A stretch of DNA of 32,000 nucleotides from Candidatus Saccharimonadota bacterium (lineage in GTDB: Bacteria > Patescibacteriota > Saccharimonadia > Saccharimonadales > UBA4665), in the NCBI GenBank assembly GCA_016700375.1, contig CP065016.1, positions 660,001-692,000 on the forward strand, given 5' to 3'. The notes beneath the pieces are model-generated. The model was not told the origin of the DNA. It did not search any database and saw nothing but the letters and a program-made list of their open reading frames with translations. Position numbers and translations under genes: made by a program. Positions 9,173 through 28,264 of this stretch are shown here, piece after piece. The stretch's first letter is position 1; each line of letters opens with the position of its first letter.

Positions 9173-10242
9173 CACGAGTTTCGCACTCCCCAATTCTTTG
9201 CTAGCCTAGAAGCATGACGTCAGTCATGCTTTTTCGTAAACAAGGAAAATAAACATGTCTCGTTCAAAATGTTCTCGTGAGCTGTACTGCTCATTCCTGG
9301 AGGTCACCTCCTCACGGTATTCTGCGCTCAGCTTGAGCGAAGTAGCCCCAGACAATGCCATGCTCTCTCACGACAGCGTCTCCCGTTGGCTAGCATCTGA
9401 AAAGATACAGCCCAAAGACCTGTGGCAAGCTGCCGCTAAGGAAGTTCGCGCCACTCCTGGCATTTTGGTCTTCGATGATGTCGTCATCGACAAAAGCCGA
9501 AGCGGCAAGATGGAGCTTGTGAACTGGCAGTATGCGGGAAGTAAGCATGACATCACCAGAGGGATTGGCGTTGTAAATGCGTTGTGGCAAGTAGATACAG
9601 AACACTACATTCCTATGGACTACCGCATCTGGAACCCGCCAGAAGACGGCAAGACTAAGAATGATCACTTCCAGGATATGCTGAGTAGCACAAGACAGAG
9701 AGGGCTACGCCCGGAGATGGTTGTTGCGGATAGCTGGTACGGCTCTCTAAAAAACCTTAAGGCAGTTCGCTCTCATGGCTGGGACTGGGTCATGGGGCTG
9801 AGGAGCAACCGGTTAGTCGGTAAGCCACATATCCAGCTCAGAGAGTTAGATATACCAGATACAGGCTTGGTGACATATCTGAAAGGCTATGGGTGGATCA
9901 GAGTCTTCCGGTTTGAGGCCAGTAACGGCCGCACGGATTATGTTGGTACAAGTCGTACTGACCTCACCCGCGAACAAGTCAAGAAATACTTCGAGCGCCG
10001 TTGGAGTGTCGAGGTACTGCATCGAGAGCTCAAACAAACCTGTGGCTTATCCCGCTGTCAGGCCAATCTTGGCCGAGCCCAAAGAAACCACATTGGGTTA
10101 GCTTTGCTTACCTGGGTACGAAAACATAAGAGAAGGCTAATTGACCAAACGACGCTATACCAACAAGATTGGGAGGTCATAAAACCAGGCATCCAGCTTG
10201 CGCTGGCTGCCCGGTTGAATGGGTGAAAGTGCGAAACTCGTG
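9173..10242 (+). mobile_element. IS element, 1070 bp, IS4-superfamily (IS701-like?) with 15-bp terminal inverted repeats and a 5-bp target duplication
   Basis: IRL cacgagtttcgcact (9173-9187) is the perfect reverse complement of IRR agtgcgaaactcgtg (10228-10242). Direct repeat CTTGC occurs at 9168-9172 and 10243-10247. Confidence 0.85.
9255..10226 (+). CDS. DDE transposase
   Basis: 323 aa. VFDDVVIDK and VVADSWYG acidic motifs. C-terminal YFERRWSVEVLHRELK fits the YREK signature of IS4-type transposases. Confidence 0.85.
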   Translation: MSRSKCSRELYCSFLEVTSSRYSALSLSEVAPDNAMLSHDSVSRWLASEKIQPKDLWQAAAKEVRATPGILVFDDVVIDKSRSGKMELVNWQYAGSKHDITRGIGVVNALWQVDTEHYIPMDYRIWNPPEDGKTKNDHFQDMLSSTRQRGLRPEMVVADSWYGSLKNLKAVRSHGWDWVMGLRSNRLVGKPHIQLRELDIPDTGLVTYLKGYGWIRVFRFEASNGRTDYVGTSRTDLTREQVKKYFERRWSVEVLHRELKQTCGLSRCQANLGRAQRNHIGLALLTWVRKHKRRLIDQTTLYQQDWEVIKPGIQLALAARLNG

Positions 10243-14384: not shown

Positions 14385-14461
14385 GGGCGATTAGCTCATT
14401 TGGCTAGAGCGCCACATTGACGTTGTGGAGGTGGTAGGTTCGAATCCTACATCGCCCACCA
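14385..14461 (+). tRNA. tRNA-Val (anticodon GAC)
   Basis: GGGCGAT TA GCTC ATTTGGCTA GAGC G CCACA TTGACGT TGTGG AGGTG GTAGG TTCGAAT CCTAC ATCGCCC A CCA. Confidence 0.9.
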
Positions 14462-14464
14462 TAG

Positions 14465-14490
14465 AAAAACCCCTGAATAGGGGTTTTTCT
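14465..14490 (+). terminator. intrinsic terminator after tRNA-Val
   Basis: aaaaacccc tgaata ggggttttt. Confidence 0.8.
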
Positions 14491-14608
14491 ATGGTGCTGA
14501 CGAGTAGGAGAGCCCTGCATAGCGAGCGATGGTTTGGTGGAAAGGCTACTCCCGCAGGAGCTCGCTCTGGGAAGGCAGCCTTGGAAGAGACGGAGCGGCT
14601 TCTTATAC

Positions 14609-14617
14609 CGCCCACCA
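14609..14617 (+). other. duplicated tRNA-Val 3' end (CGCCCACCA)
   Basis: The 9-mer is identical to the last 9 nt of tRNA-Val and lies 148 nt downstream. It is again followed by a weak hairpin, a T-run and ATGGTGC, as after the intact gene. Confidence 0.45.
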
Positions 14618-14740
14618 AGGTATGAGGCTAACAAAAGCTGGCTTTTTTCATGGTGCAACAAACAAATTACAGACGGATGCGAACTAATGTGATATGAAGC
14701 ATTACCTCTGTTATACTGCTTATGTATACAATGTTTATGC

Positions 14741-14769
14741 TTGACTTGCAAGTCCTTGTTTGCTAGACT
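14741..14769 (+). promoter_or_regulatory. sigma70-type promoter
   Basis: TTGACT (14741-14746), 17-nt spacer, TAGACT (14764-14769). Confidence 0.5.
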
Positions 14770-14775
14770 ATACCA

Positions 14776-14959
14776 CGTTAAACGAGGTGTTTTCACTGAG
14801 TACAAAACAACCAAGCTCGCTTGCGGGCTTCCAGTTGTTTTATGAAGAACTCCCAAGCGTTAAGCGTGTTGTGCGCGTACGCCGGGTAAGGACTGCATAG
14901 GTACCGGTTCCCTTCATAGGACAATGCCCCGGTCTTCGTAAGAAGACCGGGTTTTCGTT
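14776..14959 (+). ncRNA. candidate ~185-nt RNA or leader bounded by a promoter and a strong terminator, upstream of nrdR; class unassigned
   Basis: The promoter is listed above. Internal hairpin ACAAAACAAC...GTTGTTTTAT. Terminator CCCGGTCTT cgta AAGACCGGG TTTTCGTTTT at 14928-14959. No ORF longer than 15 codons. Confidence 0.35.
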
Positions 14960-14986
14960 TTCCACTATTCATGTCATGTTTTCCAC
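14955..14986 (+). promoter_or_regulatory. 11-bp direct repeat GTTTTCCACTA x2, 21 bp apart, in front of nrdR
   Basis: Copies at 14955-14965 and 14976-14986. They lie between the terminator and the nrdR ATG (15022). Confidence 0.35.
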
Positions 14987-15021
14987 TAGTATTTTCGTAA
15001 GCGATATGTCAACATGTAGAC

Positions 15022-15432
15022 ATGGTATGTCTCTATTGTGGCGGTAAGACCGAGGTCGTGAATTCTCGGCCGCAGAAACGCATAAACCAAATATGGCGAC
15101 GGCGTAAGTGTAGTGCTTGCGGTGCCGTGTTTACGACAAACGAACGCATTGACTACTCGGCGACAATAGTCGTAAAACGTAAATCAGGCCTAGAGCCGTT
15201 TGAAAGAGATATACTGCTCGTCAGCCTCGCTACATCACTCGGACACCGCCCGACTGCCGTAGGCGACGCTGCAGCCCTAGCGACTACGGTTACACAAGCA
15301 TTGCTGACCACAGCCGAAAATGGAGTTGTAGAGGTTGCGAACATTACAGCAGAGACATACACCGTGCTCAGCCGCTTTGACGCATTGGCCGCAGCACACT
15401 ACAGGGCCTACCATACCCCTAGCTCGGCATAA
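15022..15432 (+). CDS. nrdR: transcriptional repressor NrdR
   Basis: MVCLYCGGKTEVVNSRP......RRRKCSACGAVFTTNE zinc ribbon followed by an ATP-cone-like region. Confidence 0.85.
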   Translation: MVCLYCGGKTEVVNSRPQKRINQIWRRRKCSACGAVFTTNERIDYSATIVVKRKSGLEPFERDILLVSLATSLGHRPTAVGDAAALATTVTQALLTTAENGVVEVANITAETYTVLSRFDALAAAHYRAYHTPSSA

Positions 15433-15477
15433 ACTCCGGTAGACGAACTCGCTAAGTAACCAACCCACACCGTGGAG

Positions 15478-17220
15478 CTACAGTTTTTTGCTGGTGCTAC
15501 CGTCGGCTGCTCTAGAAACAACTGCTTTATCTGTTACGTCGAACTTTGATATGTATTTCCGAAGCATAAGCCGTGTTTGCGAATACAGCGCAGCAAATGA
15601 ATTAAAAATAAGTGTGGTAAATGGTAAGTAGGCCCACTGAAGCAACATGAAGATATTTCTATGCCGCTTATAGTGGGCTGGCTTTGGGGGCAGGGTCTTT
15701 AGCGCCAAAAACACGGTTACAACCGCAATGAAGATTGCAAACGTCTGTATACGACTAACAATGAGTGGCAACTCTAGGGCGGCATAGCTTTTTGGGTGAA
15801 AAAGTACCGGTATAAATCCACCGAAAAGAACTAGTATGGGCCCGACAGCCCAGGTCACATGCCCCTCGAGAAGCCGCCACGTTTTTGCTATAAGGTCACG
15901 TTTTGGTATGGTATTTTTACGGAAGAACCCCATGTGAACCACGTAGGCAAGGTCAGAGGCGCCGTACGTCCAGCGCCTATACTGCAAAAACTGTGCTTTC
16001 AGCGTTTTCCAGTAGGTGTCTGAGAGCACAGCGTCTTGGTAGATGGGCAAATGGAGCGCCAGCGCCCGGTAGTTCCCTTCAAAACGGAAGTAGGAGCGCC
16101 AGAATTGATGACCATCCTCCACTATGGTGCGCACGCTCCAAAAATCGGTTTTTTGTAGCGCAACCATCGGCTGAGCATGTGCCGAAAAATTCCTAAGCGC
16201 ATGAGACCGAAGTGAAAACACAAGGTGCGATATAGAGTTACCGGTTGCAAGAACGCGCATAGGCGCTGGCGGATCCCAGATATTATTCGAAAAGAGCGCA
16301 ACGGGCTGGAACGATGAGTGTACGGGGTCTGGACAAACAATGTAGGCATAACTGAGCGCTGTTAAATAGTGTTTGTCTGGCCGATTATCGGCATCGAGCG
16401 TTGTGACAACCACTCGCAGCGGGTCAATTTTGTTCTTTTTTAAATAAGTCTCAAGCGCCCGGCCAGCATACGTCACATTACCACCTTTGCCAATTATCTC
16501 TCCAGGTATATTTGAGGGGTGTTTCACCGCAAATGCATCCATAAACCGCGATTGGTACTGCTTCATCAGCTCAGTTGCTTGCAGTTCTGTCGCTTCCCCG
16601 CCGCGTTCTTCGTAGGCAAGTATGCAGATAACTTGCTTCATGTTAAATTCAGACGCCAGCAACGCCTCTATAGTCGGTCCAAGCACATCACGAGATTCTT
16701 TATAGGTAGCAATAATAACGGCGTGCACAACCTGGTCTGGCTCCATAAGCAGCGGCCTCTCTTTGGTGCCCGCAGTAGCATAGTGATGCCACTTTGGTCG
16801 CTTCACGCGAGGGGGTATCACGCCCTGTGCAAGTTCGTTGAGCATGGTCGGCCACGGTAGTTTTTGGTGTTGTTTTAGTGTGCGAAAACCCTGCATAGAG
16901 CGAACCGCACTAGCGGCGCCCCTGGCGAAGTTGATAAGGACATAAATAAACATGAACAAGGCGGCAATTCTAACATCTATAAAGCTCAGTATGAACGGCA
17001 GTGCTAACATGCTCCAGCTGAGTGCGCCGGGCAGAATTTCAAAGAACCTATAGTGCCCCTTCCTGTCCTGCTCGCGTGGGATTTCTAAAGACATCATACT
17101 CTCAATTGCCCCTCTGATTGGCTTTGCAGACGTGCTCTGGATGGTCGTTTTCGTGAGGAGGCATATCCTGGGGATATGGCGACGAATGAAACGGGCATAC
17201 AGGGTGCGTCTGAAAGGCAA
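15478..17220 (-). CDS. family 2 glycosyltransferase, processive membrane synthase type
   Basis: VIIATYKE, TLDADNRP and a QxxRW-type motif (LQYRRWTYGA), with flanking TM segments. The true start may be MMSLE (17097). Confidence 0.8.
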   Translation of the reverse strand: MPFRRTLYARFIRRHIPRICLLTKTTIQSTSAKPIRGAIESMMSLEIPREQDRKGHYRFFEILPGALSWSMLALPFILSFIDVRIAALFMFIYVLINFARGAASAVRSMQGFRTLKQHQKLPWPTMLNELAQGVIPPRVKRPKWHHYATAGTKERPLLMEPDQVVHAVIIATYKESRDVLGPTIEALLASEFNMKQVICILAYEERGGEATELQATELMKQYQSRFMDAFAVKHPSNIPGEIIGKGGNVTYAGRALETYLKKNKIDPLRVVVTTLDADNRPDKHYLTALSYAYIVCPDPVHSSFQPVALFSNNIWDPPAPMRVLATGNSISHLVFSLRSHALRNFSAHAQPMVALQKTDFWSVRTIVEDGHQFWRSYFRFEGNYRALALHLPIYQDAVLSDTYWKTLKAQFLQYRRWTYGASDLAYVVHMGFFRKNTIPKRDLIAKTWRLLEGHVTWAVGPILVLFGGFIPVLFHPKSYAALELPLIVSRIQTFAIFIAVVTVFLALKTLPPKPAHYKRHRNIFMLLQWAYLPFTTLIFNSFAALYSQTRLMLRKYISKFDVTDKAVVSRAADGSTSKKL

Positions 17221-17262
17221 GGCTGGTGCAATTGAGAGTATGCTGTCTTTAAGTCGGTCATG

Positions 17263-17622
17263 CTATCGGAGGAGAAGCAGTGCGTTACTGACAATTATGA
17301 GCAACACCAGCAGTGGTAATGTAAGTGCAAGCACTCCCAAGGAAAGTTCGCGCTTTATTTTGTAGGTGCGATACGCCAGTGCCAACCCAACCGTGAAAAT
17401 AAGAACGGCAGCAACCATAAAACTCACGATATCCCATGCCGTTCCCTGCGTATAGCCATCAAACCCTAGAGATGAACGGAACGACACAATGTAATTAACC
17501 GTTCCCTTGCTGGAATCGAGCTTGAGCGCCACAAGAACTAGGGCCGCCAACGCCAAAAACGCATTGAGGCTCACCAGCAACAACGCCGACCGGTCTTGAA
17601 TAAAATGTTTTTGCGATGACAT
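17263..17622 (-). CDS. small membrane protein, unknown function
   Basis: 119 aa with three hydrophobic helices. Confidence 0.5.
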   Translation of the reverse strand: MSSQKHFIQDRSALLLVSLNAFLALAALVLVALKLDSSKGTVNYIVSFRSSLGFDGYTQGTAWDIVSFMVAAVLIFTVGLALAYRTYKIKRELSLGVLALTLPLLVLLIIVSNALLLLR

Positions 17623-17696
17623 AAATCTAATACTGTATTGTAGCAGAACTATCAGTAATCTTTATAGGTAATCGGTACGTGACTATAAACGGGTTA

Positions 17697-17718
17697 TGGT
17701 GCGGGTGGGGGGAGTCGA
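17697..17718 (-). other. orphan tRNA-Gly 3' fragment (positions 55-76 including CCA)
   Basis: Minus strand TCGACTCCCCCCACCCGCACCA is identical to the last 22 nt of the intact tRNA-Gly 133 nt upstream. Confidence 0.7.
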
Positions 17719-17814
17719 CCTTTCACCTTCGGTGAAACCCTGCTCCCATGGTCGCAGGGCAAGGGCGGCTTAGCGCCACTGGCGCTCGCGTTCGCCTCAC
17801 CCAGCCCAGAACCA

Positions 17815-17845
17815 TACAAAAAACCTTTCCTTTCGGAAAGGCCTT
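17815..17845 (-). terminator. intrinsic terminator after tRNA-Gly
   Basis: Minus strand reads CCTTTCC GAAA GGAAAGG TTTTTTGT. Confidence 0.75.
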
Positions 17846-17850
17846 TTGCC

Positions 17851-17925
17851 TGGTGCGGGTGGGGGGAGTCGAACCCCCGTCTCAGCCTTGGGAAGGCTAC
17901 ATAATAGCCGTTATACGACACCCGC
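17851..17925 (-). tRNA. tRNA-Gly (anticodon CCC)
   Basis: GCGGGTG TC GTAT AACGGCTA TTAT G TAGCC TTCCCAA GGCTG AGAC GGGGG TTCGACT CCCCC CACCCGC A CCA. Confidence 0.9.
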
Positions 17926-18138
17926 TTGCCTGTTATCATAACATAAATGGGGGTTCTACAGGAGTCGACTCACCTTCGGTGGTCACTTTCAGCGACCCCG
18001 ACGCTTCCCTATTGAAAGCGCAGCTTTCATCGAAAGGCGTCCTTGCAATGTGCCACTGGCATATTTCACCCGAAACTTCACGGCAGCAAGCCAGCTTGCT
18101 CCGGAAGATTTCCTTGCGACCCGCCACGGGCGGGTCTC

Positions 18139-18191
18139 ACCCCGTCTCAGCCTTCACGAAGGCTACATAATAGCCGTTATACGACACCCGC
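18139..18191 (-). pseudogene. truncated tRNA-Gly-like 5' fragment (positions 1 to ~53) with the anticodon replaced
   Basis: Identical to the intact tRNA-Gly except that CCC is replaced by CGTG, giving an 8-nt loop TTCGTGAA. It diverges inside the T-stem after GACGGGG. No 3' acceptor strand follows. Confidence 0.7.
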
Positions 18192-18314
18192 GTAATGAGA
18201 CAAACCTACGGTTTTTCTCATCGCTTTGCTTCTCTTTTCCCTTTAGTTAGTTTTGAAAAGCCGGAATAAATCCGTCCTTTCAAAAAACCCTTTAGCCCGG
18301 ACTTTGTCCGGGTG

Positions 18315-18358
18315 CGAAATTCCAATCCAAGGAGCGTAAGCGACTGAATGGAATTTCG
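18315..18358 (-). repeat. conserved hairpin (repeat family R2, copy 1)
   Basis: Minus strand reads CGAAATTCCA TTCAGTCGCTTACGCTCCTTGGAT TGGAATTTCG. See copy 2 at 20425-20467. Confidence 0.6.
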
Positions 18359-18441
18359 TGAGGAGGAACTGTGCGAAGCCCCACCTGACTTTTGGCCACT
18401 TGATTGCCGAAAGTCAGGTGAGGTTGTAACATATTCCGACG

Positions 18442-18517
18442 TGGAGCCACCTGCCAGGATCGAACTGGCGACCTTCTCGTTACGAATGAGATGCTCTACC
18501 AACTGAGCTAAGGTGGC
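18442..18517 (-). tRNA. tRNA-Thr (anticodon CGT)
   Basis: GCCACCT TA GCTC AGTTGGTA GAGC A TCTCA TTCGTAA CGAGA AGGTC GCCAG TTCGATC CTGGC AGGTGGC T CCA. There is one A-C mismatch at positions 31-39. Confidence 0.85.
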
Positions 18518-18564
18518 AACGCTGTAAAGTATAACGGAGTAGGCACGAGGTGTACAACCCCATA

Positions 18565-18592
18565 TAAAAAAGCCCTATTGAGGGGCTTTTTT
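18565..18592 (-). terminator. bidirectional-looking intrinsic terminator after mscL
   Basis: aaaaaagccct attga ggggctttttt. Confidence 0.75.
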
Positions 18593-18609
18593 ATAGTGCA
18601 AAAAGAAAA

Positions 18610-18945
18610 TTAGTCTTTTTTCTTATCCATGCGGTCAAGCTTGGCCATATGGACAATCTGGTAGACCACAAATGCCGTTGCCAAGGGCGTAATCACCGCA
18701 CCAAGGATTGCTCCCCAGCCGAAGATAAGGTCTTCTCCACCGCGGCTAAGCCCGGTGTTCCACTCTAGTCCGTTTAAGTCAGCACCGCCGAGAATAAAAC
18801 CGACTATTGGACTAATAAATTGATCAACAATCTCTTTTACGGCCGCACCTGCCGCAGTACCGATAGCCAAACCGACCGCTAGACCAACGACGCCTTGCTC
18901 GCGAACAAAATCCACAAAACCTTTTACGTGATTTGCTTTTGCCAT
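18610..18945 (-). CDS. mscL: large-conductance mechanosensitive channel
   Basis: MAKANHVKGFVDFVREQGVVGLAVGLAIGTAAG...ISPIVG. Start set at 18945, which has a GGGAGA RBS; the 21 extra codons of the ORF-track version are unlikely. Confidence 0.9.
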   Translation of the reverse strand: MAKANHVKGFVDFVREQGVVGLAVGLAIGTAAGAAVKEIVDQFISPIVGFILGGADLNGLEWNTGLSRGGEDLIFGWGAILGAVITPLATAFVVYQIVHMAKLDRMDKKKD

Positions 18946-19131
18946 ATATATCTCCCTTATTACCTCTGTTGTAATTCGAAGTATACGACACCGAATTTTA
19001 ATGCGCAAGAAGAAATATCACTGGTGTGCATATGTAATTCTATCTGTTACAGAGATATTTATTACAAAAATGAGGTTTTGAGTTCAGCCCCATTTGACTG
19101 CTCGTTGCCTGATGGTCGAAATATCCAAGCA

Positions 19132-19554
19132 TCAGACCCAGGGAGAATACACCTGAAGCCCAGCAAACTGCTCAAAATCTTTGAGGTTGCGCGTAACCAA
19201 TGTCAGGTTATGGGCGAGACACTGTGCGGCCAACATGGCGTCGATAATGGGAGGGGTTCTGCCAGCCTTACTCCCTACAGCCGTCAAATCACCCCACAGT
19301 TTTGCCGCTATCACATCGAGTGAGATGATACGGCCCTCAAAAGCGTCTTGTATATCTTGTAGTTGAGTAGTCAGTTGCCGACGTTTCATGTCGTCTTCTA
19401 GAAGCATAATCCCTTTTTCTATCTCCCCGAGCACCAGGCATGATGTAAAGAGCTCTAGCTCACTCACTTGGGAAAACCAAGCGCTCACTTCGGAGTTCGG
19501 AGCCGGTTTGGCTAATTCGCTAAGGACGTTTGTATCAACCAAATATCCTATCAC
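19132..19554 (-). CDS. vapC: PIN-domain toxin (VapC/FitB type)
   Basis: MIGYLVDTNVLSE, and later LVTRNLKDF. 140 aa. Overlaps the antitoxin stop by 4 nt. Confidence 0.85.
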   Translation of the reverse strand: MIGYLVDTNVLSELAKPAPNSEVSAWFSQVSELELFTSCLVLGEIEKGIMLLEDDMKRRQLTTQLQDIQDAFEGRIISLDVIAAKLWGDLTAVGSKAGRTPPIIDAMLAAQCLAHNLTLVTRNLKDFEQFAGLQVYSPWV

Positions 19555-19805
19555 TGAACCACCCCTTCATCTGTCTGTCGACCTACCACTGCTCTGTCGC
19601 GGGCCAGGTCGAGCCCAGAAAAATCTGCCTTCTTTAGCGCCGTCTTTAGGCGGTGAGCCGGCTGAAGCATACGACGATAGTCGGCGTAACTCACTACTAC
19701 AGCTGTGTTTTTCCCGCGCCGACTTATAATTTGCGGCCCCTGACTGAGAGCTATATCTACGACGCTGCTCAGTTTGTTTTTCGCTTCTTGGAGTTGCCAT
19801 GTCAT
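19551..19805 (-). CDS. Phd/YefM-type antitoxin
   Basis: MTWQLQEAKNKLSSVVDIAL.GPQIISRRGKNTAVVVSYADY is the typical Phd/YefM N-terminus. Confidence 0.8.
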   Translation of the reverse strand: MTWQLQEAKNKLSSVVDIALSQGPQIISRRGKNTAVVVSYADYRRMLQPAHRLKTALKKADFSGLDLARDRAVVGRQTDEGVVQ

Positions 19806-19819
19806 AATCCTATTGTAAT

Positions 19820-19832
19820 CTAGACAGTCTAG
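19820..19832. promoter_or_regulatory. 13-bp perfect palindrome CTAGACAGTCTAG upstream of the antitoxin gene (operator candidate)
   Basis: Lies 15 nt upstream of the ATG at 19805. Confidence 0.4.
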
Positions 19833-19889
19833 CCTGTCAATAGAGATCGTAAGAGATATTTTGTGAATACCGACTTCGCCTTTCCCCCT

Positions 19890-19975
19890 GCGCCCGACCG
19901 GATGAACGCTTTGCTACTGCCCGCGTCGCATGCTCGGAGCGAGCTCCTGCGCGTGCTCCTTGTCATCGAACCGGC
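19890..19975 (-). pseudogene. tRNA-Asp 3' portion (T-arm plus acceptor 3' strand) interrupted in the T-loop by 62 nt
   Basis: Minus strand reads GCCGGTTCGA (19975-19966) + 62 nt (19965-19904) + ATCCGGTCGGGCGC (19903-19890). Deleting the 62 nt recreates GCCGGTTCGAATCCGGTCGGGCGC of the intact gene. No CCA. Confidence 0.6.
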
Positions 19976-20030
19976 AATCTACGTTCGCTGCGCTCACTAA
20001 TCGCCGGCTCAAACCGACGTGCAGACCACT

Positions 20031-20061
20031 AAAAAAGCCCCACCTTTGGTGAGACTTTTTT
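20031..20061 (-). terminator. intrinsic terminator after tRNA-Asp
   Basis: Minus strand reads GTCTCACC AAA GGTGGGGC TTTTTTAG. Confidence 0.7.
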
Positions 20062-20063
20062 AG

Positions 20064-20140
20064 TGGCGCGCCCGACCGGATTCGAACCGGCGATCTCCTC
20101 CGTGACAGGGAGGCGTGATAGGCCTCTTCACTACGGGCGC
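20064..20140 (-). tRNA. tRNA-Asp (anticodon GTC)
   Basis: GCGCCCG TA GTGA AGAGGCCTA TCAC G CCTCC CTGTCAC GGAGG AGATC GCCGG TTCGAAT CCGGT CGGGCGC G CCA. Confidence 0.9.
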
Positions 20141-20215
20141 ATACAGGTGTAATTGTACCAGATTATTTTGTTAATTAGGTCGGCCCGACTAGGACAAACG
20201 CCCTCCTTTGTCGGG

Positions 20216-20277
20216 CTCCTCCCTGCGGTACTCATCAAAAACATGCAAGCATCTTTTTGACTCCGTTCCTCGTCCGC
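20216..20277 (-). repeat. 62-nt conserved module E, copy 1 (fused to the T-loop of the truncated tRNA-Asp-like copy)
   Basis: 57/62 identical to 23488-23549. Contains an 11-bp hairpin. Confidence 0.8.
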
Positions 20278-20336
20278 CGAACCGGCGATCTCCTCCGGAT
20301 CAAACGAGGCGTGATAGGCCTCTTCACTACGGGCGC
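20278..20336 (-). pseudogene. truncated tRNA-Asp-like 5' fragment (positions 1-57) with an altered anticodon arm
   Basis: Identical to tRNA-Asp except that CCCTGTCA is replaced by CGTTTGATC (one nt longer). Identity ends after the TTCG of the T-loop, where module E begins. Confidence 0.7.
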
Positions 20337-20424
20337 TCGTCGCGGCATGGCAATGGTTTCCGCTACAGTGAAACAAGCAAAATGCTTCTTTCACTGAGCT
20401 ACAACCTCAGCCAGCCACTCCTCT

Positions 20425-20467
20425 CAAAACTCCATTCATCCGCTTCGCTCCTTGGATTGGAGTTTTG
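20425..20467 (+). repeat. conserved hairpin (repeat family R2, copy 2, inverted relative to copy 1)
   Basis: Plus strand reads CAAAACTCCA TTCATCCGCTTCGCTCCTTGGAT TGGAGTTTTG. The loop is nearly identical to copy 1. The stem differs at two positions, both compensated. Confidence 0.6.
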
Positions 20468-20592
20468 GAAATCACACTTTGCACAGAGCCGGTAAGGCAA
20501 ATATCAACCCTGGCAGTTCTTTTCCCCTGCTACGCAGTAGACAGAGCGAAACTAACAGAGGTCAGTGTACCAAGCTAGCAATAAAATTGCAA

Positions 20593-21720
20593 CTATTTCG
20601 GGAGTTCTACTTTTATAAACTTTTTGGGTGGATTCTTTTTCTGTAAGGGCTGAACAAAAGATTCTATGGGGGAAAACGTTATTTGTATATGTGCCGCTTT
20701 ATAAGCACCATTTTCTTTGCTCAGCAGTTTTACAACCTCAAACGAAGTTGGAGTTGTGATAATACCCGAAACCGCTCCAGGCTGAAGCTTACCCAGCTCA
20801 CGTACCACCCGGGGTGGAACTTCTTGGCTCTTCATACTGATGGCAGCATCAGTGTACTGGCCACCATTCGCTTTTGTGTTTGCGTCGTCTGAAGATTGGG
20901 CGGCAAGAGCAGCAAAGTCAGTTCCGTTTTTTAGTTGTAACACTACATTTTGGGCTTTTGAGAACGCCACTGTATCAAGCTTAGCCGCAACCTTTTGCGC
21001 CAGAAGCTCGTCACGAAGCTGGCGTCGTAAATCTCCTAATGACCAGCCGAAGAACTTCTGCATAACGGCTTCAAGCTCATCATCGCCTGCTGCAAGCTGG
21101 TTCTGCGTTCGTAGCACGGCTATGGCATCATTTACCTCCTGCTCGGCCACCCGAACGTTGTTCTGTGCGGCCAAATCTTTCACGTATGCAAACGCAATCA
21201 CCTGGTCTAATGCACGCGGTCGATACGTCTCGAGCTGTCGCTTTCCAGTATCTGTCGTAAAGTCTACCTGCTGTTGTGTTTCGTAGTAGTGCATAACACG
21301 CCTTAGCTCAAAAAGATAACTTTCGTACGAGACCCATCTACCCCCCGCTTTTGCGACGGGAAGCGGAAGGACTTGGCTAACGCGGTACATAAACAAAGAG
21401 GTTGACTGGTACCTATACAGACTCAGGCCGGTATAGACAAAAAATCCTATCAGTGCAGCTACCAGCAAGACGGAAGATACTATGACGATACGGTGTTTTG
21501 AATGCTCCAAAGGGTACTTATATTTACGGGCGCCCTTCAGAACCTCTTCCCTATGCTCCGCAACAGTTTCGTTTGTTATACGCGGAACATTGCTCAGAGC
21601 CGCCTCTGTCTGTTGCTGCAGTGTGGGCTTGCGGAAGCGCTGGGCCACCTGCGGCACAATAGTGCGCACTTTTTTTGTGCGACCCGTTTTCACACCCCTC
21701 TTTAGCGACAACTTCTTCAT
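20593..21720 (-). CDS. membrane-anchored parvulin-type peptidyl-prolyl isomerase (SurA/PrsA-like)
   Basis: N-terminal TM segment, SurA-N-like helical region, and a C-terminal PpiC pattern (LKNGTDFAALAAQSSDD...ANGGQY). Confidence 0.7.
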   Translation of the reverse strand: MKKLSLKRGVKTGRTKKVRTIVPQVAQRFRKPTLQQQTEAALSNVPRITNETVAEHREEVLKGARKYKYPLEHSKHRIVIVSSVLLVAALIGFFVYTGLSLYRYQSTSLFMYRVSQVLPLPVAKAGGRWVSYESYLFELRRVMHYYETQQQVDFTTDTGKRQLETYRPRALDQVIAFAYVKDLAAQNNVRVAEQEVNDAIAVLRTQNQLAAGDDELEAVMQKFFGWSLGDLRRQLRDELLAQKVAAKLDTVAFSKAQNVVLQLKNGTDFAALAAQSSDDANTKANGGQYTDAAISMKSQEVPPRVVRELGKLQPGAVSGIITTPTSFEVVKLLSKENGAYKAAHIQITFSPIESFVQPLQKKNPPKKFIKVELPK

Positions 21721-21725
21721 ATGGA

Positions 21726-22301
21726 CTATACCTCGTGTTGCGGCATACCGGCCGCTTCCACCCCTTCTTTGCGCAGTATTTCGAGCAAATGTTTCTGGGT
21801 TTTTGCTGGATGATGTATATAGTGAATCAGCAGGTCCCCCACGAATGTTTGCATCATTATAGTACCATACCCCAGAAGCGTTTCTTGCAGCCCCTTGACT
21901 TCATAATTAACCATCTGTATCTGGTTCAGACCCATATCGACAACACTCCGGTGGAAAAACCCTTTTTGCGTTATCTGAATAAACCGCTCCGTTGTTACTA
22001 TGAACACACTGAAGTGCCAGCTCATCCAGGAGGGGAAAAACAGGAGTGCACTCAGCGCAACACTTGCAAGAAAACTCACGTAAAAAAATGTCATGCTCGG
22101 CGGATTGTTTGGCTGGGTGTATGTCAGTATAAGTGTGTATAGAGGGCCGACAAGCAGGCCAAGTGACCCAATCACAAGTCCTTTCCGCATCACAATCGGG
22201 TGCTTGCGAAACACGTACAGCACCTCTTCGTCATCCATTTGGTCTTCAAAGTATTTTGCGCGACCTGCCGCTGTTAGCTTTGCCAGTTTTTCTTTGGCCA
22301 T
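21726..22301 (-). CDS. bacterial PH-domain (bPH_2, YdbS/YdbT-like) membrane protein
   Basis: EEVLYVFRKHPIVM, two TM helices, then TTERFIQITQKG... Confidence 0.55.
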   Translation of the reverse strand: MAKEKLAKLTAAGRAKYFEDQMDDEEVLYVFRKHPIVMRKGLVIGSLGLLVGPLYTLILTYTQPNNPPSMTFFYVSFLASVALSALLFFPSWMSWHFSVFIVTTERFIQITQKGFFHRSVVDMGLNQIQMVNYEVKGLQETLLGYGTIMMQTFVGDLLIHYIHHPAKTQKHLLEILRKEGVEAAGMPQHEV

Positions 22302-22326
22302 AAGCGTATTGTAGCAGATTTCGCCC

Positions 22327-23244
22327 CTAAGGGAGTTGATTTGCTATGTGCGCAGCCGCTACTTCACAACCATGTGCTACGGCCAATGAAAATGTTTGAC
22401 CCTGTTTCAGGGCAGCTATGAAGCCTGCGTTAAAGGTATCGCCGGCGCCTGTGACGTTACCCGCGTGGATGCCCTTTACGGCAGGTACGGTTTTTACCAT
22501 ACCATCCTCTAGATAGTGCGCTCCACGGGAACCATCTTTAACTACTGTTATGAGCTGCGGTGCTCGCTCCTGCAACATGCGAAGCCCCGCTTCGATACTA
22601 CTGACCTCCCAAGTCTCGAGGAATTCGGCTTTACTCGGTAAATAATAGTCTGCAGCCAACACCACTTCTCTGACTTGTTCGTACCGCTCTGCCAGCACGC
22701 CGGGTGTAATTCTGCCGTGGTCCACTACCATTGTCGTCTGCTGCTTTTTCGCCAGCGCAACAATGTCCATAAAATGAGCCGAAAGTCCGTCTAGCTTGTA
22801 TAACGTACCAAAATACAAGAATGTTTCACTGGTGAGTTCTTTTGCGAGCTCGGGAAGTAGCAATTGAGCCGTTAGAGCTTGGTTTGCGCTCCCCACACTG
22901 AACACCGCATGGTCGCCATCGTTACTAACCATATTTAGACCAACATTTGTCTGAGCACCTTCATCAGAAATAAGGCAAGCGGCTATACGTTCATCTGCAA
23001 GAAGTTGTTCAACCAGCGCTCCGGTAGCATCACCCCCCTTCATGCCAATAAATAAACCCGCTAGCCCAAAACGCTGCAGTCGCCGAACAAAATTAACCCC
23101 AGAACCCCCTGGTAGGGCTACGTATTTACTACCGAGTATCTCAGTTTCGACCGGTATGCCACTGTGGTCAAATGGCAATCCAGAGGTGTTAATATCGAGG
23201 TACAGGCCTCCAAATGCAATAACATCGTATGGTTTTGTATTCAT
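22327..23244 (-). CDS. PfkB-family carbohydrate kinase
   Basis: N-terminal DVIAFGGLYLDI and the C-terminal signature TGAGDTFNAGFIAAL. Confidence 0.85.
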   Translation of the reverse strand: MNTKPYDVIAFGGLYLDINTSGLPFDHSGIPVETEILGSKYVALPGGSGVNFVRRLQRFGLAGLFIGMKGGDATGALVEQLLADERIAACLISDEGAQTNVGLNMVSNDGDHAVFSVGSANQALTAQLLLPELAKELTSETFLYFGTLYKLDGLSAHFMDIVALAKKQQTTMVVDHGRITPGVLAERYEQVREVVLAADYYLPSKAEFLETWEVSSIEAGLRMLQERAPQLITVVKDGSRGAHYLEDGMVKTVPAVKGIHAGNVTGAGDTFNAGFIAALKQGQTFSLAVAHGCEVAAAHIANQLP

Positions 23245-23255
23245 GGTGAGTCGCT

Positions 23256-23330
23256 TGGTACCCCGGAAAGGAATCGAACCTATATCATCTCCTTAGGACG
23301 GAGCTACTCTATCCATTGAGCTACCGGGGC
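23256..23330 (-). tRNA. tRNA-Arg (anticodon CCT)
   Basis: GCCCCGG TA GCTC AATGGATA GAGT A GCTCC GTCCTAA GGAGA ... AGG TTCGATT CCT.. CCGGGGT A CCA. The T-stem is slightly irregular. Confidence 0.85.
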
Positions 23331-23386
23331 GTATATGTATTCTAGCGGGGTCCCCATGAAATCACCAGATTTCATGGGGTGCATTT

Positions 23387-23420
23387 GACGGAGTTATTCT
23401 ATCCGTTGAACTATCGGGAC
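23387..23420 (-). pseudogene. truncated tRNA-Arg-like 5' fragment (positions 1-34)
   Basis: The 34 nt GTCCCGATAGTTCAACGGATAGAATAACTCCGTC are identical to 23605-23572. Identity ends after the first anticodon base. A 12-bp hairpin follows (23352-23379). Confidence 0.65.
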
Positions 23421-23487
23421 ACACCATAATCTTATCATAGCACCGGTTCGCTTCCAGCTACGCCGGGATACGCGCGCTTACAGCGCA

Positions 23488-23549
23488 CTCCTCCCTGCGG
23501 TACTCGTCAAATACATGCAAGCATGTATTTGATTCCGTTCCTCGTCCGC
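23488..23549 (-). repeat. 62-nt conserved module E, copy 2
   Basis: See 20216-20277. It starts directly after the TTCG of the truncated tRNA. Confidence 0.8.
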
Positions 23550-23605
23550 CGAACCAACATCTGCTCCTTAGGACGGAGTTATTCTATCCGTTGAACTATC
23601 GGGAC
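23550..23605 (-). pseudogene. truncated tRNA-Arg(CCT)-like 5' fragment (positions 1-57)
   Basis: GTCCCGA TA GTTC AACGGATA GAAT A ACTCC GTCCTAA GGAGC AGATG TTGG TTCG, then module E. About 80% identical to the intact tRNA-Arg. No TCGGGAC 3' acceptor strand occurs anywhere nearby. TATAAT lies just upstream (about 23625). Confidence 0.7.
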
Positions 23606-24222: not shown

Positions 24223-25140
24223 ATGAAGCGTATGCAGTTTATCAAAGCTAAAACAGATTTTTTAGAATATCTTGAGATTGAACAAAACCGTTCGCAGAAA
24301 ACGATTCGCAATTACGACCACTACCTAACGCGCCTTGCCGACTACGCCGGTGACATCACCGTGCAGGATATAGACCAAGAACTGGTACGTAAATGGCGAT
24401 TGTGGCTGAACCGACTTGGTACCAATGTAAACGATGAGCTACAAAAAACAACGCTAAATTACCACCTCATTGCCCTGCGTAGCTTTCTAAAATTTTGTCA
24501 TAAACGCGAAATGAAGTGCATGGCACCAGATACCATAGAGCTATCCCGGACGAAACGACCCCAAGTGACATTCCTAAATGAAGAAGAACTCCAGCGTCTA
24601 TTTGACCAGCCCGATTCGAACACAGTGGCCGGACTACGCGATAGAGCAATCCTGGAGCTCCTCTTTAGCTCAGGCCTGCGCGTGTCTGAACTTGTAGGGC
24701 TCGACCGCGATCACATTAACCTCAAACGCCGCGAGTTCATGGTACGGGGAAAAGGCCAAAAAGACCGGCCCATTTTCATTAGCGCAGTGGCAGCCGACTG
24801 GCTTCAGCAGTATCTCGACAAGCGTACCGATACAACAAAACCGCTTTTTATGCGCTACGGTGGCCGGAAAACTGTTGACCGCAGCGGTAATTTCCATCGC
24901 CTCACCGCTCGAAGCGTCCAGCGCCTTGTCGCGCACTACGCCCTACTCGCCGGCATCACCAAACACGTCAGCCCACACACCATGCGCCACTCATTTGCAA
25001 CAAATTTGCTCATGAACGGTGCCGATCTGCGCTCAGTTCAAGCCATGCTCGGCCACAGCAACATCTCTACGACGCAAATCTACACCCACGTCACCGACCC
25101 ACACCTAAAAGCCGTCCACGAAAAATTCCACCATATGTAA
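24223..25140 (+). CDS. tyrosine site-specific recombinase, XerC/XerD-like
   Basis: SAM-like N-terminal domain, RVSEL, HTMRHSFAT, LGHSNISTTQIYTHV. Confidence 0.85.
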   Translation: MKRMQFIKAKTDFLEYLEIEQNRSQKTIRNYDHYLTRLADYAGDITVQDIDQELVRKWRLWLNRLGTNVNDELQKTTLNYHLIALRSFLKFCHKREMKCMAPDTIELSRTKRPQVTFLNEEELQRLFDQPDSNTVAGLRDRAILELLFSSGLRVSELVGLDRDHINLKRREFMVRGKGQKDRPIFISAVAADWLQQYLDKRTDTTKPLFMRYGGRKTVDRSGNFHRLTARSVQRLVAHYALLAGITKHVSPHTMRHSFATNLLMNGADLRSVQAMLGHSNISTTQIYTHVTDPHLKAVHEKFHHM

Positions 25141-26982: not shown

Positions 26983-27401
26983 TAGTATATTGTTACATTC
27001 GAGGTTCCACCTCCTAGCGTCACCCAGTCGATGTTTACCTTGTAGCGCGAACCAGAGTTCGTAATAGATACCCCGTATTTAGCCCCCCCGTTACTCCGTT
27101 CACAAGCCGCACTATGAGGCGCCGAAATAACGAACACATTAGTACTATTAAAACAGCCGCCACCAGACGAAATACTAGTTGAGCGCAATAGTTCGGCTTG
27201 TTGTTCGGCAAGTTTTTGGGCATACATTTGTTCTTGGGTCTCCTGTGATGCGCGAACATTACGATTCGTAACCGCATAGGCGCTCACAAGCACCATACTC
27301 ACAATACCAACCGCTATCAGCACCTCGACAATGGTATCGCCTGCCTGCTTCCTTCGCGCATGAGCTTTAAAAACACGCATTGTTTCAGCACCCAGTCCCA
27401 T
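26967..27401 (-). CDS. minor pilin (PilV-like)
   Basis: GDTIVEVLIAVGIVSMVLVSAY prepilin motif. The start may be MRVFK (27380). Confidence 0.65.
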   Translation of the reverse strand: MGLGAETMRVFKAHARRKQAGDTIVEVLIAVGIVSMVLVSAYAVTNRNVRASQETQEQMYAQKLAEQQAELLRSTSISSGGGCFNSTNVFVISAPHSAACERSNGGAKYGVSITNSGSRYKVNIDWVTLGGGTSNVTIYYWTAG

Positions 27402-28221
27402 TTTTTATGCTCAGCTTCACTTCTAACCCATTGGAAATGGTGATTAGGCCAGACTGATTCGTACCCCCGCTCTTAAAACAAAGTTCAATGCCATTCGCAA
27501 ACGCAGGGTACCTGTTGGCATACGGGTTGTTCATCTCTTTATTGATGTTGTTTACTTCATCGGATGGGTTCCATGCTCCGTATCCAGCAAGTCTTATTTT
27601 CTGGGATCCCCCGGATCCATTTCCAACCGACTGGAAATCAGCAAATGTAGACAACAGAGCAAATGATTGGACATTTGTATTCCAAGCACCAGCACCGACA
27701 GATCTTCCCTTTACGTACTCAATACTATTCGGTATATCAATTTTGTTTGTCAAATCTGGGATGGACGGGTTGGAGCTCGTTGGGGCGACGGCAGTAATTT
27801 TTGCATCAGCCGCATACTTAACCTCTTGACCGCTTATGAGCCTCCGTGCAGCGAGCGAGTAAACAAAAAAGCTATTCGGATGATCTGCCGGGTCAAAAAC
27901 TAGTGTTTTTCCTGCAAAAATACACTCGCCATTTGTCCCCTGTTCTTTGCCCACCGAAGCAGTAATTGTAACATTGTGTGGGCCGCTATCCGTACAGGTA
28001 AAGCCGCCCGCTGATGGGTAGTTTCCGGTTCGTGTTTCGTTTATACTCTGTTGGATTTGCTGCTGGAGACCGCGTATGCCAACGGCGAACTCAGTCTTCT
28101 GCTGCCGACCATTTATTAGTATAGCCGCACTGAGGAACAGTGCGCTTGTCACAGCCAGGACAATAAGCGTTTCAACAACAGTAAAACCCTGTGCCGGTGT
28201 GGTATCGCCACCCCTAATCAT
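27385..28221 (-). CDS. minor pilin with prepilin-type N-terminus
   Basis: MIRGGDTTPAQGFTVVETLIVLAVTSALFL. The ORF-track version (to 28452) extends into the IS and is rejected. Confidence 0.65.
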   Translation of the reverse strand: MIRGGDTTPAQGFTVVETLIVLAVTSALFLSAAILINGRQQKTEFAVGIRGLQQQIQQSINETRTGNYPSAGGFTCTDSGPHNVTITASVGKEQGTNGECIFAGKTLVFDPADHPNSFFVYSLAARRLISGQEVKYAADAKITAVAPTSSNPSIPDLTNKIDIPNSIEYVKGRSVGAGAWNTNVQSFALLSTFADFQSVGNGSGGSQKIRLAGYGAWNPSDEVNNINKEMNNPYANRYPAFANGIELCFKSGGTNQSGLITISNGLEVKLSIKNGTGC

Positions 28222-28264
28222 ACGCCCAGTATAGCATAAGCGATATGGTAATAGACAATTATTC

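Follow-up and report, generated by a model that had tools for sequence, protein, structure and literature searches.

The stretch of DNA analysed here (32,000 nucleotides, in the following referred to as the window) belongs to the chromosome of a member of Candidatus Saccharibacteria (TM7), and the six tRNA genes it carries lie where the original prediction had placed them. Four of these loci (Val, Gly, Asp and Arg) had been described as flanked by tRNA fragments, always in the order head, module, intact tRNA, terminator, module and tail. The heads or tails at Gly, Asp and Arg are indeed highly significant, while Val possesses no head and only a tail of 9-13 nt; likewise, the full order holds for Gly and Asp only, with terminator, downstream module and tail missing at Arg. 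The data used for comparison consist of one syntenic region together with loci that were selected by pattern (L numbers below).

On the forward strand, the intact tRNA-Val(GAC) (14385..14461) is followed by a terminator (14462..14491), a perfect palindrome running on into CCA/TGG, and by a downstream (D-type) unit. The 5' part of this unit (14492..14536) comprises a diverged antisense copy of the tRNA 3' end, a AGCGAGCGA loop and a degenerate sense T-arm piece, and is clearer in the orthologues L001 and L005. It is succeeded by the insert M2i (14537..14604), a structured module whose hairpin CGCAGGAGCTCGCTCTG covaries between loci, by a decayed tail (14605..14617) of which the last 9 nt correspond to the tRNA 3' end, and by a second terminator (14625-14649). 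The recognisable tail in the window is CGCCCACCA only, which alone is at chance level (E 6.5), and we accept it as genuine only because a tail of 18 nt occupies this position in the orthologous Val locus L001. Insert-free sense-antisense-sense arrangements occur at Val in L001, L004 and L008, and in one Val unit of L005 the insert is located after the T-stem.

The other three loci lie on the reverse strand. At Gly, a head corresponding to tRNA-Gly positions 1-51 (18140..18191; E 5e-16) displays an altered 8-nt anticodon loop (TTCGTGAA) and recurs in L001 and L065. It leads into M3 (17970..18139), the insert of the upstream (U-type) unit, which starts with UGAG-hairpin-CGCAAGG, has its insertion point at 52/53 and contains a first hairpin that covaries in L001 and L065. 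Between M3 and the intact tRNA-Gly(CCC) (17851..17925), direct reading reveals a decayed sense T-loop piece, an antisense T-arm (GAACCCCC) and, directly 5' of the gene, an extended -10-like TGTTATGAT (together 17926..17969), the last being a putative promoter element. The downstream unit (17697..17850) consists of a terminator (17815-17850), an antisense copy (17790-17814), a structured insert (17720-17789) and a tail with 22/22 identical nucleotides (17697-17718; E 1e-7), and is kept in L065 with a compensatory change. The window, L001 and L065 carry the Gly units; L004, L005 and L008 lack them.

The Asp head (20278..20336) covers tRNA-Asp positions 1-58; positions 1-31 and 39-58 are identical to the tRNA and the anticodon loop is replaced, this loop being normal in L038 and L065. 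Adjoining it is a copy of the module M1 (20195..20277; 94.8 bits with the covariance model), laid out as a helix P1, a 10x2 internal loop, a hairpin P2, a AGGGAGGAG spacer and a second hairpin, hp2. A decayed tail with a snap-back hairpin and an extended -10-like TGGTACAAT (20141..20194) then precede the intact tRNA-Asp(GTC) (20064..20140); where this tail has decayed in the window, L035 and L038 retain ATCCGGTCGG. The downstream unit (19890..20063) is composed of a terminator (20029-20063), an antisense copy (19999-20028), a loop AGTGAGCGCAGCGAACG (19982-19998), a sense T-arm (19966-19981), an M2i insert (19904-19965) and a tail identical in 14/14 nucleotides (19890-19903), and an imperfect palindrome of 97 nt is located at 20000-20094.

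At Arg, two heads, both near-cognate, precede an intact tRNA-Arg(CCT) of a second sequence type, 'GCCCCGGTAG' (23256..23330). Head 1 (23550..23605), which reaches T-loop position 56, corresponds to positions 1-56 of an ancestral 'GTCCCGATAG' tRNA-Arg(CCT) that is the intact gene in L001, L004, L005 and L008. It is followed by M1 (23471..23549; 99.4 bits with the covariance model) and by a decayed tail, an antisense T-arm (CTGGAAGCGAACC) and a promoter-like TATGATAAGAT (23421..23470). The head 2 region (23331..23420), with a 34-nt head (23387-23420), a conserved hairpin (23347-23386) and a promoter-like TAGAAT, is the mark of a separate replacement event at anticodon position 34. The upstream regions of Asp and Arg share a 68-nt module with 93% identity that begins directly after the GGTTCG of the head. 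L008, like the window, has a filled Arg site, which in L004, L005 and L065 is empty, and L045 represents a circular permutation of the Arg locus of the window.

The downstream regions had been predicted to resemble each other in two further respects. A 15-mer, CGCAGGAGCTCGCTC, does have exactly two occurrences, one in the Val and one in the Asp downstream module, against 0 expected by chance. The strings following the terminators (TATGGTGCT and relatives) are likewise similar, and are antisense copies of the tRNA 3' end because TGGTG is the reverse complement of CACCA; this copy is statistically clear in some units only (permutation p of 0.0005 for Asp, 0.01 for Gly and 0.09 for Val). The CCA of these tRNAs is encoded in the genome, and its presence in the tails is therefore uninformative on their origin.

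M1, with 62 nt plus the second hairpin, is the best-defined insert of the window. True matches amount to five in the genome-collection scan, all from Saccharibacteria, and to 19 in the metagenome scan; the covariance model recovers 24 complete copies at 75-108 bits from Saccharibacteria genomes and metagenomes and also detects decayed copies in L004 and L001. M1 replaces T-loop nucleotide 57 of a partial tRNA copy in 24/24 cases, and every such copy is adjoined by the intact cognate tRNA gene, these neighbours belonging to at least 12 tRNA species (Leu-TAA, Leu-CAG, Leu-CAA, Pro-GGG, Pro-CGG, Pro-TGG, Asp, Ser-GGA, Ser-TGA, Cys, Lys, Met and Arg). Since TTCG precedes M1 even beside tRNAs with the T-loop TTCAA, nucleotide 57 is part of the insert. 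In 12 downstream units M1 is located 69-84 nt past the tRNA, and tails of 12-21 nt match that tRNA. The copy number is low (1-3 per genome, with one pattern match in each of five representative genomes and two copies in the window), no terminal repeats were found on M1 elements, and there is no M1-linked ORF or associated protein gene, the neighbours sharing only syntenic housekeeping genes.

Five M1 copies adopt the same minimum-energy fold (z-scores -2.2 to -4.5). In the M1 alignment 97% of the cells are paired, compensatory (double) changes occur in 18 of the 27 predicted base pairs, and the observed covariation was reached by none of 500 shuffles. G:U pairs are numerous on the tRNA-sense strand only; for example, U:G is more frequent than any other type at one hp2 pair, and P1 has it six times. 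M1 thus displays the helix-preserving, strand-specific covariation of structured RNAs in general, and purifying selection acts on the modules as a single-stranded nucleic acid with the sense of the tRNA. The selected form is most simply RNA; alternatively, pairs of the G:U type may stem from G:T pairs in single-stranded DNA. A search of Rfam returned no match for M1 (only tRNA passes its gathering threshold, other best scores being 11-35 bits against thresholds of 33-136), which places M1 outside the catalogued RNA families. Neither an Rfam intron match up to E = 10 nor a group I catalytic core was found, and a tRNA intron, whether group I or bulge-helix-bulge, was rejected: upstream units show decay in their 3' parts, the 5' part is missing from downstream units, and an intact tRNA copy always lies next to them.

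Every unit duplicates, as DNA, part of the tRNA gene next to it and has a conserved structured module placed within the T-loop or alongside it; M2i and M3, which do not share the exact insertion point of M1, are related or analogous inserts. In upstream units the whole tRNA 5' part is retained, and behind it come a short tail in decay, a piece of antisense T-arm and a promoter-like -10 element serving the intact gene. Downstream units, located past the tRNA terminator, comprise a GAACC/GGTTC hairpin, often preceded by the antisense copy of the tRNA 3' end, the insert, a tail from A58 to CCA and a second terminator; no recognisable promoter was found in them, so their transcription is an assumption. 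Related genomes display empty sites, filled sites, decayed copies (decayed or internally deleted in L001 and L004) and circularly permuted arrangements. Inserts are conserved, with compensatory base-pair changes, across genomes with proteins ~53-72% identical, and such changes separate the window from L065 in M3 and the Gly downstream insert. The duplications extend past the mature tRNA ends, with the identity of both copies reaching 8 nt upstream of the tRNA in L038 (at Asp) and L065 and the TAGTAAA after CCA being included in L005, and therefore originated at the DNA level. The units are inherited vertically over long distances, lost by deletion and reshuffled by homologous recombination between tRNA repeats, the last being supported by the permuted locus L045 and by the extended identity of the Asp copies in L038. 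Over such distances the heads remain near-identical to the tRNA, with anticodon loops differing by lineage; this conservation is poorly explained by gene conversion alone and hints at some function. Direct, inverted and direct copies joined at short palindromes, as in tandem inversion duplications, are confined to the tRNA-derived scaffold.

The ORF of a serine recombinase (1169-2824) ends inside the T-loop of tRNA-Pro, as predicted, but it is not the only recombinase of the window, which also encodes a Xer-like tyrosine recombinase (24223-25140) and DDE transposase ORFs (9255-10226 and 28275-29342). Genomes with units and genomes lacking them have the Xer-like gene in a syntenic position, and the only Y1 transposase seen, in L008, is flanked by hairpins unrelated to the units. 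Neither a mobilising enzyme nor an excised form of the units was found in the data examined.

Several known systems resemble the units in part. Islands and prophages at tRNA or tmRNA genes share with them the direct repetition of the tRNA 3' segment from the T-loop, the regeneration of an intact gene beside the insertion, and tandem tails; the units differ by their size of 150-200 bp, the lack of integrase and cargo, the conserved RNA-like module and the duplication of the tRNA 5' part in upstream units. Such islands and prophages have attL/attR direct repeats and may accrete in tandem, an example being the ssrA islands of Dehalococcoides (PMC3146451). In the archaeon Caldiarchaeum subterraneum, mobile elements disrupted a tRNA gene, with gain of a tRNA-Thr fragment and an intron (PMC3293823). 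As in our units, mobile DNA separates a 5' tRNA fragment there from a complete gene downstream, and the arrangement is heterogeneous within the population; however, a recombinase is encoded in the 1.8 kb that lie in between, and the process yields functional tRNAs that are split or carry introns, whereas the interrupted copies of our units are non-functional and their insert has no ORF.

MITEs and palindromic elements of the IS200/IS605 type are small, hairpin-rich and ORF-less, with a short specific target and no classical inverted repeats. The units are equally small, ORF-less, hairpin-rich and devoid of classical inverted repeats, and use a short specific insertion sequence, M1 always being placed at nucleotide 57, but they occur in 1-3 copies, their stems vary while single-stranded motifs are conserved, and their orientation follows the tRNA, not replication. 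Membership in these groups was rejected, as neither many dispersed copies nor a cognate transposase with matching ends were found. Tandem inversion duplications, which according to the Roth laboratory reportedly form in Salmonella by snap-back at quasi-palindromes, show the same sense-antisense-sense order as the tRNA 3' part of the units, with junctions at the terminator and the TTCGAA palindrome, but do not explain the conserved non-tRNA inserts. Finally, tmRNA, YrlA and tRNA introns likewise combine tRNA-derived helices with a large non-tRNA domain; the units differ in Rfam scores far below threshold and in an insert in the T-loop instead of the anticodon region, and they have no intact exon pair, with an intact tRNA copy lying beside them in every case.

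On balance we are inclined, if only slightly, to regard the window chimeras as members of a family of composite units flanking tRNA genes in the Saccharibacteria lineage, together with the following mechanism. The inserts would be small, non-autonomous, T-loop-directed modules, selfish or domesticated, which could persist only in a redundant tRNA copy. Such copies would be made by palindrome-mediated snap-back duplication (at the terminator and the TTCGAA T-arm) and single-crossover recombination, and the modules would spread between strains with the near-invariant tRNA sequence as portable homology, being presumably transcribed from the adjacent tRNA promoter or by read-through of it. Among the origins originally proposed, small non-autonomous T-loop elements are best supported, by the invariant position of M1 beside so many tRNA species with no linked ORF and by orthologous sites that are empty or filled, even though the copy number is low for a selfish repeat and neither terminal repeats nor a mobilising enzyme were found. 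Alternatively, the units could be host-beneficial non-coding RNA genes on tRNA scaffolds, in which acceptor and T-stem strands with the CCA serve as a handle for tRNA-processing enzymes (RNase P, RNase Z), the insert is functional and different tRNA partners reflect occasional relocation. The strong purifying selection and covariation of M1 speak for this, as do the retention of Gly and Asp units across genomes ~53% identical in PfkB, the tails that in many cases match perfectly as far as CCA, in contrast to the diverged antisense parts, and the terminators framing downstream units. Yet upstream units keep M1 intact despite decayed acceptor 3' strands, many close relatives are devoid of units altogether (L004, L005), partner tRNA and side of the gene vary, downstream units have no promoter of their own and the proposal names no function, so that we consider it rather unlikely.

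A different origin was seen in scars of integration, i.e. fused attL/attR remnants of T-arm-recombining elements like the tRNA-Pro prophage after internal deletion and tandem accretion. The direct repeats expected from such an origin exist: the inserted DNA is bracketed by direct repeats of the tRNA 3' end, starting at A58 (tails of 12-22 nt, empty and filled sites), tails are arranged in tandem in L001, L005 and L047, comparably to the repeats of the Dehalococcoides ssrA islands (PMC3146451), the post-tail terminator of L001 is orthologous to that directly after tRNA-Val in L004, and the large serine recombinase overlaps the tRNA-Pro T-loop. But integrase or cargo between tRNA and tail was found at none of more than 30 loci, the units measuring only ~150-200 bp; compensatory changes in M1, M3 and the Gly downstream insert do not fit neutral remnants, the M1 core is absent from viral contigs, no viral relatives of the recombinase were found, and duplication of the tRNA 5' part is unusual for integrases, which makes this origin improbable. 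Still less likely is a purely local rearrangement through tandem-inversion duplications at palindromes, with neither element nor function. The direct-inverted-direct order, the junctions at the terminator palindrome and T-arm, and insert-free mini-units in L001 and L004 agree with it, yet such a rearrangement leaves unexplained why one non-tRNA module of 62 nt recurs in many genomes at an identical T-loop nucleotide next to at least 12 tRNA species, and why this module covaries; it is contradicted for M1 and viable only as the source of the tRNA-derived scaffold. Chimeras of the cDNA type, arising from reverse transcription with template switches onto tRNA fragments, would account for tails beginning close to position 58-59, where m1A58 classically stops reverse transcriptase, and for a post-terminator antisense copy resembling hairpin-primed synthesis or a primer-binding site. 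This last proposal is hardly credible, as the duplications carry the non-tRNA flank mentioned above (8 nt in L038 and L065, TAGTAAA in L005) instead of stopping at mature ends, antisense copies run past position 58 into the T-stem, CCA is genomically encoded and a scan of 40 window ORFs yielded no reverse transcriptase.

Beyond the preferred reading of T-loop-directed modules in redundant tRNA copies, there is some chance, although we hold it only tentatively, that M1, M2i and M3 constitute a new class of structured RNA elements that occupy the T-loop of tRNA-derived scaffolds and propagate among the tRNA genes of Saccharibacteria via an RNA- or ssDNA-dependent mechanism. Such a class would be the bacterial equivalent of SINEs derived from tRNA, or a mobile RNA of the T-loop that resembles an intron, and might have a biochemical activity of its own; its hosts would be the episymbiotic Saccharibacteria.

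The window is part of a chromosome from Candidatus Saccharibacteria (TM7), and homologues of its PfkB-family kinase are annotated as Saccharibacteria. Its genes run from a type IV pilus cluster through a Xer-like recombinase, NDK, tRNA-Arg, PfkB, a SurA-like protein, tRNA-Asp, MscL, tRNA-Thr, tRNA-Gly, NrdR, tRNA-Val and ThrRS to MiaA, an order retained in complete and draft genomes at 53-72% protein identity. ARAGORN and Rfam concordantly identify six tRNA genes. The original prediction regarded the serine recombinase at tRNA-Pro as the only intact recombinase, which is incorrect: the window also encodes a Xer-like tyrosine recombinase and two DDE transposase ORFs with IS4-like domains, one at 9255-10226 (+) and one at 28275-29342 (-), overlapped by a long ORF at 27385-28452. 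The serine recombinase, a large protein of 551 aa without relatives in viral contigs, belongs with a terminase small subunit gene to a prophage-like edge at 682-2879, and the last 22 nt of its gene overlap the 3' end of tRNA-Pro in antisense. Just downstream of tRNA-Pro lies a GAACCC-TGCAAA-GGGTTC hairpin, which resembles the hairpin preceding the insert M1 at other loci. A PIN-domain toxin / Phd-YefM antitoxin pair at 19132-19805 (-), between the Asp downstream unit and mscL, is missing from that position in all related genomes examined.

Partial copies of tRNA 5' parts (heads) and 3' parts (tails) had been reported beside four tRNA genes. At Gly, Asp and Arg they exceed chance by far, but the Val locus has no head and a tail of only 9-13 nt, which we accept because the orthologous Val locus in L001 (CP064992; L numbers denote related loci from Saccharibacteria genomes and metagenomes) carries an 18-nt tail behind a homologous module, with three more tandem tail-terminator units after it. 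The Gly head (52 nt) differs from the tRNA in the anticodon loop only and the Gly tail matches at 22/22 positions; the Asp head reaches position 58 with its anticodon loop replaced, and the Asp tail matches at 14/14; the two Arg heads (56 and 34 nt) derive from a second tRNA-Arg(CCT) sequence type. Heads are nearly identical to the tRNA, yet their anticodon loops were altered differently between lineages, with TTCGTGAA versus TTCCGGAGG in the Gly head and GTTTGATC versus the normal loop in the Asp head. The 15-mer common to the Val and Asp downstream modules is exact and not expected by chance, and a 68-nt module shared by Asp and Arg is 93% identical. What looks alike after each terminator is the tRNA 3' end copied in antisense, and a long imperfect palindrome is centred on the terminator.

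These parts assemble into two kinds of unit, read here on the tRNA-sense strand. Upstream units (Gly, Asp, Arg) consist of the full tRNA 5' part up to the T-loop, an insert, which is M1 in the Asp and Arg units and M3 in the Gly unit, and a short decayed T-loop/T-stem 3' piece, followed by an antisense T-arm piece, which forms a hairpin with the decayed piece, an extended -10-like element and the intact tRNA. In downstream units (Val, Gly, Asp) the intact tRNA is followed by the palindromic terminator, a diverged antisense copy of the tRNA 3' part, a loop that often contains two AGYGARC heptamers, a sense copy of the T-stem 5' strand that ends in TTCG, M2i as the insert and a tail spanning about A58 to the acceptor end, in many cases with a second terminator after it; the tandem AGYGARC motif is conserved. 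The non-tRNA insert lies inside a T-arm copy in both kinds, and therefore both are T-loop-interrupted tRNA copies. The promoters placed just upstream of the intact tRNAs are our own reading, since a simple promoter and terminator scan gave no excess over shuffled controls.

The best-defined insert is M1, a structured module that is both widespread and conserved, found in five species, all Saccharibacteria, in a scan of representative genomes and at 19 further loci in a metagenome scan. In every case its 5' neighbour is a T-stem 5' strand with TTC(G), and its 3' side consists of GAU, A58 and the 3' strands of the T-stem and the acceptor of a nearby tRNA. TTCG precedes M1 even in tRNAs with a TTCAA T-loop, so that nucleotide 57 belongs to the insert. 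This partner tRNA is encoded 59-84 nt away, except at the window's Arg locus (164 nt), because of a second event there, and the distance from tRNA to M1 is constant at about 70-80 nt; partners comprise Leu (three anticodons), Pro (three), Asp, Ser (two), Cys, Lys, Met and Arg. All copies have a common predicted fold, with a helix P1 (GYGGAC/GU-A-CCGC), a 10x2 internal loop with invariant GAGGAACGGA, a helix P2 of 10-13 bp and variable sequence, a spacer AGGNAGGAG and a further hairpin, also variable. The covariation is strong, with 97% of cells paired; no shuffled or slid control comes close, and 18 of the 27 pairs show double changes among 23 sequences. Pairs are often G:U or U:G, which on the other strand would be A:C. 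A covariance model scores the 24 complete copies at 75-108 bits and two degraded copies at 27-49 bits. In close relatives, P2 stems can be near-identical even where the locus differs, as between Asp in the window and Arg in L045.

Nothing similar to M1 exists in Rfam 15, and an Rfam search at permissive thresholds of a 10-kb region and two short stretches returned tRNAs only, plus sub-threshold hairpin noise. The neighbours at 23 loci include no protein family travelling with M1 beyond syntenic housekeeping genes. The 21 matches of its core 16-mer in viral contigs were all chance matches in high-GC coding DNA, and searches of the literature on tRNA introns, T-loop insertions and structured RNAs in Saccharibacteria and the candidate phyla radiation (CPR) yielded no description of these units. 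Likening the internal loop to a k-turn, the sarcin-ricin loop, or hammerhead and other small ribozymes was done by eye only, found no support in Rfam and was dropped. We also rejected a T-box-like or cis-regulatory leader, as the downstream genes vary from locus to locus, and a guide RNA with scaffold, 3' tail as guide and T-loop as adjacent motif, as there is no linked nuclease gene and upstream units lack intact tails.

M2i, M3 and the Gly downstream insert resemble M1 in behaviour, on fewer data. Conservation of the Asp downstream unit extends over five genomes, and the unit is predicted to fold into an outer helix of antisense part and tail, a 12-bp GAACC/GGTTC helix and a CGCAGG-hairpin, the last covarying as GGAGC/GCUCC, GGUGC/GCACC and GCUGC/GCAGC. 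Both M3 and the Gly downstream insert are preserved in the window and in L065, and compensatory changes separate the two. M1 and M2i are probably related, judging by direct reading of the M2i copies in L008, L058 and L065, which start with GUGGAGCGAGGAC or GCGGACGCCAAGGAG and all contain CGCAGG; the M1 covariance model finds the window's Asp M2i at E = 1.3 only. Insertion points are less uniform than those of M1, with M3 at 52/53 and one Val unit in L005 having its insert after the T-stem.

M4, a 49-nt hairpin module with loop AAGGAGCGAAGCGGAUG, occurs twice in the window, at 20420-20468 (-) and as an inverted copy at 18315-18363, again in L005, L035 and L038, and at 92% identity upstream of tRNA-Leu in L058, an unrelated metagenome locus. 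The SurA-like gene is followed immediately, at 20337-20592 (-), by a conserved promoter (TTGCAA-17-TACACT) driving a ~220-nt structured leader before the tRNA-Asp head; the leader also precedes intact tRNA-Asp in L005. Between the Val unit and nrdR, at 14740-14960 (+), lies a conserved non-coding stretch of ~200 nt, which has both a sigma-70-like promoter of its own (TTGACT-17-TAGACT) and a strong terminator. Four related genomes carry it at 79-89% identity, and Rfam contains no match; it may be a small RNA that has escaped annotation, e.g. a divergent 6S-like RNA, or an nrdR leader.

The region upstream of the window's Asp head corresponds to that upstream of intact tRNA-Asp in L005, and the terminator after the Val tail in L001 directly follows tRNA-Val in L004; the added DNA was therefore inserted within the tRNA 3' region and is bounded by its repeat. 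L004, L005 and L065 have an empty Arg site, L008 and the window a filled one; Gly units are present in the window, L001 and L065 and absent from L004, L005 and L008; an intact Asp M1 occurs in the window, L035 and L038/L065, one with an internal deletion in L004 and a decayed one in L001, and L005 and L008 have none. The tRNA-Asp at L001 13035-13100 is a pseudogene, with CCTGT duplicated in the anticodon loop and a truncated 3' end, so that CP064992 must encode tRNA-Asp elsewhere. Where L005 lacks the M3 upstream unit of other genomes, a small stand-alone GIY-YIG domain ORF (14841-15125) abuts tRNA-Gly. Downstream of the Val unit in L001, at 17460-17700 (-), lies a tandem array of three units of ~63 nt, each composed of the tail ATATCGCCCACCA, a terminator and an antisense tail piece. 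Tandem downstream units with different inserts, M1 and then an M2-type or other hairpin insert, each closing with another tail, occur at L047 960-1127, L058 4520-4640, L050 about 120-200 and L060 1-50; L060 holds two M1 copies inside 200 nt.

Rather than decaying as scars do, the inserts are under selection as single-stranded structures formed by the tRNA-sense strand. Their movement over evolutionary time is shown by the range of tRNA identities that they adjoin, on one side of the gene or the other, by empty versus filled orthologous sites and by the near-identical P2 stems at different loci. Among the explanations originally offered, a family of small T-loop elements comes closest, while scars of integrase activity account for the repeat geometry only. 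Copying of tRNA into cDNA is contradicted by duplications that include flanking sequence. A scan of 40 window ORFs found no reverse transcriptase. In L045 the pieces of the window's Arg locus occur in circularly permuted order, in L038 both Asp copies are identical for 8 nt further upstream, and in L005 TAGTAAA is repeated after CCA. All this indicates duplication at the level of DNA, together with gene conversion and recombination between tRNA repeats, rather than copies of mature tRNAs. The breakpoint at position 34 represents one inherited replacement event common to the window, L001, L002 and L045, not a recurrent hotspot.

Since insertion into the T-loop would destroy an essential single-copy tRNA, only insertions in redundant copies are visible. 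Such copies could arise by snap-back duplication at two natural palindromes, the terminator and TTCGAA, and sense-antisense-sense mini-units without insert are found in L001, L004 and L008. They may also result from single-crossover recombination, where the homology arm used would set the upstream or downstream arrangement. The units would be transcribed by read-through, and inserts may spread by transformation with the invariant tRNA as homology. As a mobiliser we considered and rejected a Y1 (IS200/RAYT-like) transposase of L008-L010, because the hairpins flanking it are confined to the surroundings of the transposase and are absent from the window. That gene (L008 3400-4170, also in L009 and L010) has the same 45-nt perfect hairpin (CAAGGAGACTCCCTG...) on both sides and is an insertion polymorphism inside the pilus gene cluster.

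Transfer RNA genes are classic landing pads of mobile DNA, and the fragments left behind are commonly written off as scars. What interrupts the T-loop here appears instead to be a conserved RNA module with a predicted fold, which has accompanied a wide variety of tRNA genes in a host-dependent bacterial lineage that is poorly understood. Annotation pipelines will miss such units, which could mislead the prediction of tRNA genes, prophages and genomic islands in CPR genomes. If the module is mobile, it would represent a new way to exploit tRNA genes; if it is a host RNA, it would constitute an uncharacterised class of RNA in organisms whose very small genomes make it unlikely that any non-coding DNA retained there is idle.
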